From IMG/VR virus record IMGVR_UViG_2802429244_000018, positions 1-46,327 of that record: a DNA stretch of 46,327 nucleotides; one strand, written 5' to 3'. A program made the position numbers. Position 1 is the first letter of the stretch. The number at the start of each line of letters is the position of its first letter. Of the stretch, positions 18,001 through 21,000 are shown piece after piece. This stretch comes from a virus (lineage: Duplodnaviria; Heunggongvirae; Uroviricota; Caudoviricetes).

Positions 18001-21000
18001 ATTTGCGAGGATTTACCCAGCACCACTTTTTTGCAGGAATCGGAGTTTGGAGCTATGCACTTAGAAAAGCAGGATGGCCAGACAACAAGAGTGTCTGGAC
18101 AGGAAGTTGCCCATGCCAACCTTTCAGCTCGGCAGGCAAAGGAAAAGGGGTTGATGACGAGCGGCACTTATGGCCGGCATTCTTCTGGCTTATTGAAAAA
18201 TGCAATCCTGGCATCGTTATTGGCGAACAGGTTGCAAGCGCAGACGGCCTCGCTTGGCTCGACCTTGTACAAACTGACTTGGAAGGTGCGAACTACACCT
18301 CTGCAGGTACCGATATTTGCGCTGCGGGCTTCGGTTCTCCGCACATCAGGCAGCGATTGTATTGGGTGGCCTACTCCAACGACAAATATCAACTTTCAGC
18401 CAGAAACGCGCAGGGGAATTCAGAACCTATCTGGATGCGTGAGACTAGCTGGATGGCAAACTCCTTTAGCGAACGATGCAACAGGTTCAACGCATTGCTA
18501 CAGCGGAAAAGACAAGAGCGGAACCCCAAGAATCTGCTTGAAACTTCCCGGGACGGTGAAGCTATGTACCCATTACCGGTTAACGGCTTCTGGAGAGATG
18601 CAGACTGGCTTTACTGTAGAGATGAAAAATATCGTCCAGTTAGACCCGGCTCATTCCCGATGGTTAATGGCATTGCCAAAAGCTTGGGACGAGGCAAGTC
18701 CACACTGGGAGGAATGGCAAAGCGCAATCAAGATCAGCGAATTATTGGATATGGAAACGCAATCAATGCAGAAGTAGCAACGGCATTCGTGAAAGTTTGT
18801 ATGGAGGTTGTTAATGCTTAGCCTATCCCAATACCTCCAATACCAGAAAGAAAGCGTCGAGCGGGCTTTAACGTGCGCTAACTGCGGTCAGAAGCTGCAT
18901 GTGCTGGAAGTTCACGTGTGTGAGCACTGCTGCGCAGAACTGATGAGCGATCCGAATAGCTCAATGTACGAGGAAGAAGACGATGAGTGATTTCTCTGAG
19001 CTTATTTCCTTCAAAAAAGACAGAGAAGAAATGCGGACTGAATCTGTCTATTACGTTCAACACCGGAATAAACGCTCGGTGCTTGATCAGAATCTGATTA
19101 TTACCGGAGACCTGGCATTCAGAACATATAAGGCCAGCATGGAAATGAAGGATTTCCCTAAATGTGGTTCTGAAAGAGAAGCCGCGTTAAAGCTGGCTGA
19201 GTGGATGCAGAGAATGGCTGCTGCAATTGAGAATTACTGGAGTGAACCATAATGGCTAACCTACGCAAAGAAGCACGCGGCAGAGAATGCCAGGTACGTA
19301 TTTACGGCGTATGCAATGGCAATCCTGAAACTACAGTTCTGGCACATTACCGGATGGCTGGAATTTGCGGAACGGGAATGAAGCCTGACGACCTGATCGG
19401 CGCATGGGCTTGTAGCGCGTGTCACGATGAAATCGACCGACGCACCCATAACCTCGACAACAAAGACGCCAGACTTTACCACCTCGAAGGCGTGATCAGG
19501 ACGCAGGCGATACTGCTGAAGGAGGGGAAGATTAAGTCATGAACGAATATCAGTTTGTGCTTCCATACCCGCCGTCGGTGAATACCTACTGGCGAAGACG
19601 GGGAAGCCAATACTACATCAGCGATAAAGGCCAGAAATACCGAAAAGATGTACAGCAAATAATCCGCCAACTCAAGTTAGACATTTTCACCAAATCACGA
19701 CTCCGCATCAAAGTCATCGCAGACGTTCCAGACTCCCGCCGCCGCGACCTCGACAACATTCTTAAAGGTTTACTCGACTCCCTTATCCATGCCGGATTTG
19801 CGGAAGACGACGAGCAATTCGACGACATTCGTGTAATTCGTGGTGTGAAAGTACCAGGAGGAAGGCTTGGAATAAAAATCACCGAACTGGAGAACGTATG
19901 AACGCCACAATTCAAACGATACCAGAGCTTCTTATCCAGACACGAGGCAATCAGACCGAAGTGGCGAGGATGCTTTCCTGCGCAAGAGGAACAGTGCTCA
20001 AGTACAACCGAGACAGCAAAGGCGAGCGTCACGTAATAGTTAACGGCGTCCTGATGGTCAAACAGGGCAAGAGGGGAAGACGATGAGCATAAGAGAACTA
20101 AACCTCACCAAAGAGCAGCACGAGTGGCTGAATGGCTGGCTTGAACTGTGGGGAGCATGGGTTTATTCAGGTCGTCTGGAAAAGCGCATGAGCAGCGTAA
20201 TAGCGAAGTTCATGGAGAGCGTAGAGCCGGGAAGAGTTATGACAAGGCCAATGTGTAATGATGATGATGGAATGTTGATTTCTCAGGTCGTCGATTCCGT
20301 CATGTGCATTGACAAGAAAGCCTTTGGCATCCTCCTCAGCTACTACGCTCATGGTTCATCTAAGCGAGCAATTGCATCCTACTATCACGCGACTGCAAAG
20401 CCACGCAAGATGTGTGGACGTGGTGGCGAGGGATGGCGAAAACCTTCACTGGCAACCTGTAGAAACGAAATTGACGACATCCTGAAAGCGTCATTATTTG
20501 TTTTATACCAGCCAATGCAAAATGCTTTCAAAATGCGTAAACGTGTAGAGAAAGTTAAGCATATTGCTGTTAAAAGTCTTGACATGCAATTAGCCATTTA
20601 GCCATAATTAGAGGGTAAGCTGCCGTTAGTGACTCTTAAGTTGCAACGGTGGCTTTTTTTATTTGGGTCAGTCGTATAAAGGTCATTACGGAAGGCTGTT
20701 AACCTTCTTATCGTGGTTCGAGTCCACGCTGTCCCGCCAAACATGCTGGTTTAGCTCCAATGGTAGAGCAGTCGCCTTGTAAGCGAATGGGTAGCGGTTC
20801 AAGTCCGTTAACCAGCACCATAACTGAGCCGTAGCCACTGGCTATCCTGAATTCATCAGTGATAGTTACGCTGCGGCCTTCTTTTTTCCCCTTCCCAATA
20901 TAAGAACTACGCAATCCGTTACTGGCGGAGGCGTTGCTATGAAATCAATGGACAAAATCTCTACTGGCATTGCCTACGGAACATCCGCGGGTAGTGCGGG

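Follow-up and report, generated by a model that had tools for sequence, protein, structure and literature searches.

What is a stable RNA hairpin of 50 nt doing between the tRNA genes and the lysis genes in the late leader of a lambdoid phage? The question is raised by a stretch of 46,327 nucleotides of caudoviricete DNA (positions 1 to 46,327 of IMG/VR virus record IMGVR_UViG_2802429244_000018, the whole of which is called the window below), in which such a hairpin lies 7 nt past a tRNA-Thr gene and 50 nt ahead of the ribosome-binding site of S21, the holin gene of phage 21 type. Because it is fused directly to a U-rich tract, the hairpin most likely acts, among the roles weighed here, as an intrinsic terminator at the end of the tRNA cassette, the second of a tandem whose first member is the established late terminator tR', a reading to which we would give a probability of about 0.45. 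The hairpin is of an ordinary kind and is present in many lambda-like phages, lambda included, yet it is unannotated as RNA in the records inspected and has no Rfam family.

A hairpin of the late transcript joined to a U-rich tract

The hairpin consists of two helices separated by an asymmetric internal loop. Its base helix, GCCGUAGC (20828-20835) paired with GCUGCGGC (20870-20877), comprises 8 bp, of which six are G-C and one is G-U, and is followed by a 3x1 internal loop (CAC at 20836-20838 opposite an unpaired C at 20869) and by an upper helix of 12 pairs (20839-20850 with 20856-20868), in which UGGCUAUC/GAUAGUUA is extended by CUGA/UCAG, a single U is bulged at 20860 and the terminal loop reads AUUCA (20851-20855). 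Over 65 nt (20826-20890), the minimum free energy (MFE) is -27.7 kcal/mol and the MFE and centroid structures are identical; 200 dinucleotide shuffles fold at -11.7 +/- 2.4 kcal/mol (z = -6.72), and none of them reaches -27.7. The same hairpin is retained in the MFE and centroid folds of the entire 337-nt leader. A first-pass annotation of this DNA, made from the sequence alone, had described a folded segment of about 55 nt with an 8-bp closing helix around two inner hairpins. The closing helix is there (its G-U pair included) and so is the fold, but the structured part measures 50 nt (20828-20877) and its interior is one continuous, bulged hairpin in both MFE and centroid structures. An alternative inner helix, CACUG/CAGUG, was discarded as it is not kept in lambda, and so was a small open reading frame (ORF) on the + strand (GTG at 20858 to TAA, 14 codons), which has no ribosome-binding site and is unconserved in the lambda-type context.

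The structure belongs to the late transcript, since four of its pairs are G-U and become A-C mismatches on the other strand; accordingly, the folding energy of the 50-nt core is -26.7 kcal/mol for the + strand and -19.2 for the - strand, a difference of 7.5. These G-U pairs, together with the frequent A-U to G-U changes among relatives, make the fold specific to the strand on which a terminator would have to work. The U-rich tract that had been pointed out after the element is CUUCUUUUUUCC (20878-20889), and 8 of the first 10 nt after the stem are U on the transcribed strand. A stable G+C-rich stem-loop and a U-rich tract directly 3' of its stem, as expected of an intrinsic terminator, are thus both present. 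The placement noted beforehand, after tRNA-Asn and tRNA-Thr and before an S21-type holin, is also correct, and the hairpin is the sole terminator-like structure between these tRNAs and S21. The same holds more widely: in 77 of the 77 S21-type leaders sampled, a run of 3-8 T (mostly 5-6) is joined to the hairpin and no other hairpin stands ahead of S21, so that the hairpin and the leader's 'second terminator' coincide there. As a separate observation, the stretch of the window from the hairpin to the S21 ribosome-binding site (CCTTCTTTTTTCCCCTTCCCAATATAAGAACTACGCAATCC; 20878-20925) is C/U-rich with almost no G, a composition typical of Rho-utilisation sites, and contains the T run at 20882-20887.

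The U run is a property of the S21 junction, not of the family. CCTTCT follows the hairpin in all clades and the U run lies outside this conserved element, being absent from lambda-S-type and Klebsiella-type copies and from copies of the type found in an uncultured phage (L012), all of which keep the hairpin; hairpin and U tract are therefore not conserved together. After CCUUCU, lambda-type copies read ACACAUGA and lambda itself CCUUUUACAC, Klebsiella copies read AAAUCC, and L012 reads ACACC and then a tRNA-Gly that begins 12 nt after the hairpin. Separate terminator-like hairpins are found in these relatives 25-100 nt downstream overall, which speaks for the terminator reading: lambda-type leaders have a second hairpin (GGCAGGAGGU...ACCUCCUGCC, then GUUUUG) about 25 nt further on, Klebsiella-type leaders have two terminator-scan matches 25-65 nt downstream, and L012 has a terminator after its tRNA-Gly. 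Likewise, among loci where a tRNA-like domain (see below) occurs without the hairpin, many of those inspected have a canonical terminator roughly 10-100 nt past the domain, placed roughly as the hairpin is relative to its own cassette. The second hairpin of lambda, at about 45028-45074 of J02459 (L001 1229-1275), is terminator-like and recurs at the corresponding position in every lambda-S-type leader; some of its variants are mismatched at the fifth pair, which suggests recombinant arms.

How would such a terminator work? The promoter pR' would be constitutive, and polymerase without Q modification would halt mostly at tR' (20617-20660). Polymerases leaking past tR' would transcribe tRNA-Asn and tRNA-Thr and then halt at 20828-20877 plus UUCUUUUUU, which would leave the holin and endolysin genes, 50 nt beyond, silent in the lysogen, whereas Q-modified polymerase would pass both terminators. 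After termination or cleavage, the hairpin would be a 3' trailer on the tRNA precursor, to be trimmed by normal tRNA 3' processing. Both termination at the hairpin and its override by Q would be in keeping with the general behaviour of lambdoid late operons, and with the tandem terminators that Luk and Szybalski reportedly placed in the lambda late leader in 1983. It had also been suggested that the element might be the true late terminator. That role belongs to tR', which lies directly after pR' and has annotated terminators as its homologues in phage 21 (39543-39590) and Sf6, and the hairpin can at most be a second, tandem one. If it is, it would explain how the lethal pinholin/endolysin pair of phage-21-type prophages is kept silent despite a constitutive pR' and a leaky tR', and how the two phage tRNAs could make up a transcription unit of their own. 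Such a role would refine a well-known scheme and would not introduce a new principle.

Copies of the hairpin and selection on its fold

Resemblance to the lambda late leader, to which the first-pass annotation had pointed, is borne out by alignment: window 20822-20880 is 93.2% identical to lambda J02459 44945-45003, the hairpin corresponding to lambda 44951-45000, where it is followed by CUUUUAC. The lambda copy sits between tR' (~44780) and S (45186). The element is present in 80 phage records, from phages of Escherichia, Salmonella and Shigella plus one more distant Klebsiella phage, and in 970 of 5426 complete E. coli genomes (about 18%); HK620 has no copy of the hairpin. The arrangement of the window is found in a widely used laboratory expression strain, E. 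coli Origami2(DE3) (NZ_CP084529 4561122-4563613, L551), where a Q21-type gene, tRNA-Asn, tRNA-Thr, the hairpin with its U tract and an S21-type holin, named essD by PGAP, follow one another. None of the phage and genome records inspected, including the curated ones of lambda, phage 21 and Sf6, has an RNA element annotated at the hairpin; the features listed under the matches are a neighbouring tRNA or coding sequence, a 'hypothetical protein' or the boundary sequence of CUS-3 (see below). An Rfam 15 cmscan of 20400-21200 at E <= 10 returned the two tRNAs and two chance matches elsewhere, with nothing at the hairpin.

The exact lambda late-leader sequence is also found on short or low-coverage contigs assigned to Pseudomonas, Veillonella, Oceanobacillus, Shewanella, Enterococcus, Segatella and more, metagenome-assembled genomes among them (L129, L130, L143, L146, L148, L158, L159, L163, L170, L171, L176, L193, L195, L200 and others), which is most simply explained by lambda DNA contaminating public assemblies. 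A scan of one genome per species returned mostly this exact sequence, plus copies in Escherichia and Shimwellia, and was of little use for covariation.

What stands around the hairpin varies from phage to phage, and its position does not. In an IMG/VR sample of 82 copies, the upstream neighbour is the 3' end of tRNA-Thr (35 copies), lambda-type sequence (about 20), a tRNA-like end reading GGTTCGATTCCGGCCGCCA (about 13) or an arm of CCGGAGATCAGCACCGG type (about 9); downstream, most copies have the lambda-S leader, about 14 have the S21 leader and one has another tRNA. The element is common to these four upstream and three downstream contexts at 93-100% identity, and homology between phages typically ends at its edges. 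Each copy has a tRNA or a tRNA-like domain ending upstream of it, in the order acceptor-type helix, ACCA or ACCC, a 7-nt spacer (A/U)AACUGA and hairpin, the latter always starting 11 nt beyond the acceptor-type helix. The spacer is the same in all E. coli-type copies irrespective of the upstream sequence, and reads AAACCGA in the Klebsiella clade. In the record of phage CUS-3 (CP000711), 241 bp upstream of S, hairpin included, are labelled 'bsq3; boundary sequence', and the element has the properties of a lambdoid boundary sequence, that is, a short non-coding stretch at a module joint with differing modules on either side. This label implies that the stretch was noticed earlier as a mosaic joint, without a structure or function. 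The concept of boundary sequences is said to come from the HK620 paper of Clark and colleagues (2001).

Is the fold under selection? Conservation is not confined to lambda-derived mosaics, since copies in Klebsiella phages and in uncultured phages keep the fold by compensatory changes. When 39 distinct variants were aligned and their pairs counted against the structure described above, 96.5% of cells were standard pairs and compensatory changes were seen at 3 pairs, giving a covariation score above that of all 500 shuffles and all slid controls. One of these changes, in the Klebsiella clade, replaces C-G by U-A in the base helix, which reads GCUGCAGC/GCUGCAGC there; the other two, both in L012, turn U-A into A-U in the upper helix. 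All three thus stem from just two divergent lineages. Other variation is mostly A-U to G-U, wobble to Watson-Crick or in loops, pairing is also kept in variants found later (L522, L523 and L534), and no clade has lost the bulged U, the CCUUCU tail or the single-nucleotide 3' strand of the internal loop. Some variants are mismatched, such as one with an A-G in the upper helix (17 copies), and lambda's own copy has two mismatches and folds at -16.2 kcal/mol. Nucleotide diversity in 54 S21-type loci is 0.059 for the hairpin, 0.010-0.014 for the tRNAs, 0.033-0.056 for flanking non-coding DNA and 0.071 for the S21 gene. Judged from these sequence comparisons, selection is on the fold rather than on the sequence, and it is not strong.

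Termination, processing and other readings

Several properties of the hairpin weigh against its being a terminator. Compensatory changes have preserved the fold even where it has no U tract behind it (Klebsiella CCUUCUAAAUCC; L012 CCUUCUACACC), from which it follows that the role conserved in the family is not classical termination alone. A generic terminator has no need of the conserved bulged U, of the asymmetric internal loop or of the CCUUCU tail. The first nucleotide after the stem is a C, and the terminator index of d'Aubenton-Carafa, calculated by hand, is negative for the 50-nt hairpin. The T run ranges between 3 and 8 T in S21-type copies, so a strong U tract is only loosely selected for, and hairpin diversity is not below that of the flanking non-coding DNA and far above that of the tRNAs. 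A simple terminator scan did not flag the hairpin, but this is uninformative either way since the scan also misses the established tR' of both lambda and the window.

The main rival, a processing site as the first-pass annotation had also suggested, which we consider somewhat doubtful, is that the hairpin serves RNA processing or stability as a nuclease site, cut by RNase III in its ~20-bp helix or by RNase P or RNase E just 5' of it. Cleavage would detach the leader RNA, be it tRNA or tRNA-like, from the mRNA for lysis and morphogenesis. The hairpin would stay either with the upstream product, blocking 3' exonucleases, or with the downstream mRNA, protecting its 5' end, and the U run would be incidental to the S21 context. 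This would account for the retention of structure, bulged U, asymmetric loop and CCUUCU tail in at least three clades without a U tract, three compensatory pairs included, and for the invariable distance of 11 nt from the acceptor-type helix. The layout of 8 bp, internal loop and 12 bp resembles RNase III sites of phage T7 type, and with 20 pairs arranged as 8 + 12, a 3x1 internal loop and one bulge the hairpin is compatible with such a site as far as geometry, the one aspect assessed, is concerned. Daniels and colleagues reportedly found RNase III sites in lambda late RNA in 1988, but these may belong to another long hairpin, the one immediately behind tR' in lambda. RNase P of E. coli, for its part, reportedly cuts away Rho-independent terminators located behind tRNAs (PMC4176162), a precedent in favour of processing. 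However, the stem is not followed by an RCCA for RNase P, the spacer has no RN|WUU motif for RNase E, the lambda copy is weak, the A-G mismatch of the upper helix is frequent and sequence diversity is not reduced. A more ambitious version, that bulged U, asymmetric loop, AAACUGA spacer and CCUUCU tail make up a dedicated recognition module forming one processing unit with the preceding tRNA or tRNA-like domain, strikes us as decidedly unlikely. If true, docking of a nuclease or other protein could, for example, tie the freeing of the leader RNA to how stable or how well translated the lysis mRNA is, adding to lysis timing a post-transcriptional layer overlooked even in lambda.

Alternatively, the hairpin might have no function today, being the old terminator stem of a tRNA 'moron' that survives mainly as a patch of common sequence where lambdoid phages recombine and swap Q/leader and lysis modules. 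Homology that starts and stops at the element between phages with unrelated flanks (four upstream and three downstream classes), the bsq3 annotation that covers it in CUS-3, a diversity resembling that of neighbouring non-coding DNA and the mismatches in several variants are all as such a relic would have them. It is nevertheless unlikely in view of the three compensatory pairs in divergent clades and the 96.5% of paired cells, which argue for selection on the fold, of a polymorphism mostly in loops or compatible with G-U pairing, and of a strand specificity that would be unexpected for a DNA homology patch. It is very improbable that spacer, hairpin and U tail form a small RNA (sRNA) of ~62-70 nt acting in trans, either as a tRNA 3' trailer like the 3'ETS-leuZ sponge or like the short prophage sRNAs AgvB and AsxR. 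Hfq usually binds 3' ends made of a hairpin and a U tail, short sRNAs are known from the late leaders of prophages (PMC4104026, PMC7547250) and the trailer would come immediately after a tRNA. However, the single-stranded part is just 7 nt long, the U tail is missing in most family members, a promoter scan found no separate promoter and there is no Rfam match at E <= 10, with AgvB (RF02702), AsxR (RF02703), STnc100, Esr41, isrK and C4 all included. Of the Pas sRNAs of enteropathogenic E. coli, the two compared, PasA and PasD, are unlike the hairpin in the fragments given in the supplement, and identity with AgvB/AsxR or with Pas sRNAs was rejected on these grounds despite their sharing the genomic neighbourhood. 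Least probable by far is that the hairpin is what remains of a third tRNA gene after loss of the gene's interior, although a tRNA-like remnant had been proposed at the outset, and although the 7-8-bp base helix is acceptor-stem-like, lies within a tRNA array and is followed 12 nt on in L012 by a real tRNA-Gly. The interior of the hairpin forms one continuous helix that lacks both a T-loop and an anticodon loop, and the fold as such is kept by compensatory change, which decay would not yield; ARAGORN calls the Asn and Thr genes alone and the Rfam tRNA model is silent at 20821-20890 (E <= 10).

The late-control region and known systems

The late-control region (Table 1) is lambdoid, with a Q gene of phage 21/Sf6 type. 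Phage 21 (OL657228) is 98% identical to window 20616-21160, and its curated record names pR', a Q-binding element, the terminator, both tRNAs and the dual start of S21. Tandem octamers AATTAGCC/ATTTAGCC are found at 20589-20604, between the -35 and -10 hexamers of pR'. The putative Q-binding element of phage L is AATTATCC/ATTTAGCC (PMC8022706) and that of phage 21 reads ATTGAGCA/AATGAGCA; the octamers of the window are closer to the former, which fits a Q of the L/Sf6 subtype. Outside this region, a 328-aa ORF at 17835-18821 (+), known from the ORF listing alone, contains GSCPCQPFS, reminiscent of the PCQ motif at the catalytic site of C5-cytosine DNA methyltransferases.

Table 1. Late-control region of the window, in order of transcription.
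Feature	Position	Strand	Basis or remark
Q antiterminator gene, phage 21/Sf6/L type	20083..20601	+	172-aa ORF; matching phage regions annotated antitermination protein Q
Late promoter pR'	20579..20608	+	TTGACA, 18-nt spacer, CATAAT; promoter scan 11/12; near-identical to pR' annotated in Sf6
tR', first late-leader terminator	20617..20660	+	17-bp hairpin then U7; whole-leader fold
tRNA-Asn (GUU)	20665..20739	+	ARAGORN; Rfam tRNA model 55.3 bits
tRNA-Thr (UGU), 3' end CCA	20745..20820	+	ARAGORN; Rfam tRNA model 61.5 bits
Conserved single-stranded spacer UAACUGA, tRNA 3' end to hairpin	20821..20827	+	
Late-leader hairpin	20828..20877	+	Fold computation; 39-variant pair count
U-rich tract after hairpin, CUUCUUUUUUCC	20878..20889	+	CCUUCU is the conserved part; U run specific to S21 junction
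S21-type pinholin/antiholin gene, dual start, first gene downstream	20939..21154	+	71-aa ORF; match to phage 21 antiholin/holin
SAR endolysin, R21 type	21154..21651	+	165-aa ORF; phage 21 annotation

In lambda-type leaders, the slot held by tRNAs in the window is filled by structured RNA, namely a first long hairpin (ACAGGUAAGAGCA...UGCUCUU) and then a multibranch domain closed by NNNNGGUG/CCACCNNNN. The layout of this domain is tRNA-like, with a first arm GCGCA-GGCUGA-UGCGC, a last arm CCGG-AGAUCAGCA-CCGG and two arm loops that are complementary over 5 nt. Its motif is present in at least 120 viral contigs (including 114 new IMG/VR loci, L402-L515); the full domain is found in HK620 (L237 15990-16190), a copy in a Klebsiella phage (L235 388-595), and a reduced copy without the arm-1 motif, but with a covarying closing helix, in lambda at about 44785-44945 (L001 986-1145). 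In 60 distinct trimmed constructs, pairing holds for 94% of cells and compensatory changes are seen at 9 of 18 pairs, the 62 compensatory cells comparing with 15.9 +/- 3.5 in shuffles; none of 500 shuffles reaches the score and slid controls are far lower. An obligatory coupling to the hairpin was rejected, since only 5 of 100 domain loci have it. With no Rfam family and no tRNA call by ARAGORN, this domain may, on comparative sequence evidence, be an undescribed phage RNA, and it may matter more than the hairpin itself.

How does the hairpin compare with known systems? As a joint between modules it is akin to the lambdoid boundary sequences, since it forms the 5' end of bsq3 of CUS-3 and marks the junction of Q/leader and lysis modules in mosaic genomes; bsq3 is, however, an evolutionary label without structure or function, and the window has its hairpin part alone, joined to an S21 cassette. 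With the hairpins cut by RNase III (those of T7 R1.1 type and the sites in lambda late RNA), it shares a helix of ~20 bp, an asymmetric internal loop and a place in a polycistronic phage leader, but the lambda copy of the late-leader hairpin is poorly paired. Phage phi80 has no GCCGTAGCC...GCTGCGGC element and no copy of the hairpin in its late leader. Its M3 RNA, a phage hairpin of ~60 nt and a substrate of RNase P, was set aside as unrelated, being an annotated oop homologue (36229-36288, - strand) next to cII. Also comparable are the terminator or trailer hairpins of bacterial tRNA operons, such as those of valU and lysT, reportedly removed by RNase P (PMC4176162), or 3'ETS-leuZ, in which a hairpin follows the last CCA by a few nucleotides and is followed by U's; the hairpin of the window differs from these in lying inside an antiterminated phage operon, and in its family also following tRNA-like domains that are not tRNAs. 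Compared with tR' of lambda, the terminator of 6S RNA, it comes after a tRNA cassette instead of directly after pR', its stem is unusually long (20 bp) and bulged, and it is kept in relatives without the U tract. What the two share is their make-up, a hairpin with a U run behind it, and a place in the late transcript beyond pR' and ahead of the lysis genes; in the window, as at tR', this structure would stop unmodified polymerase and be overridden by Q.

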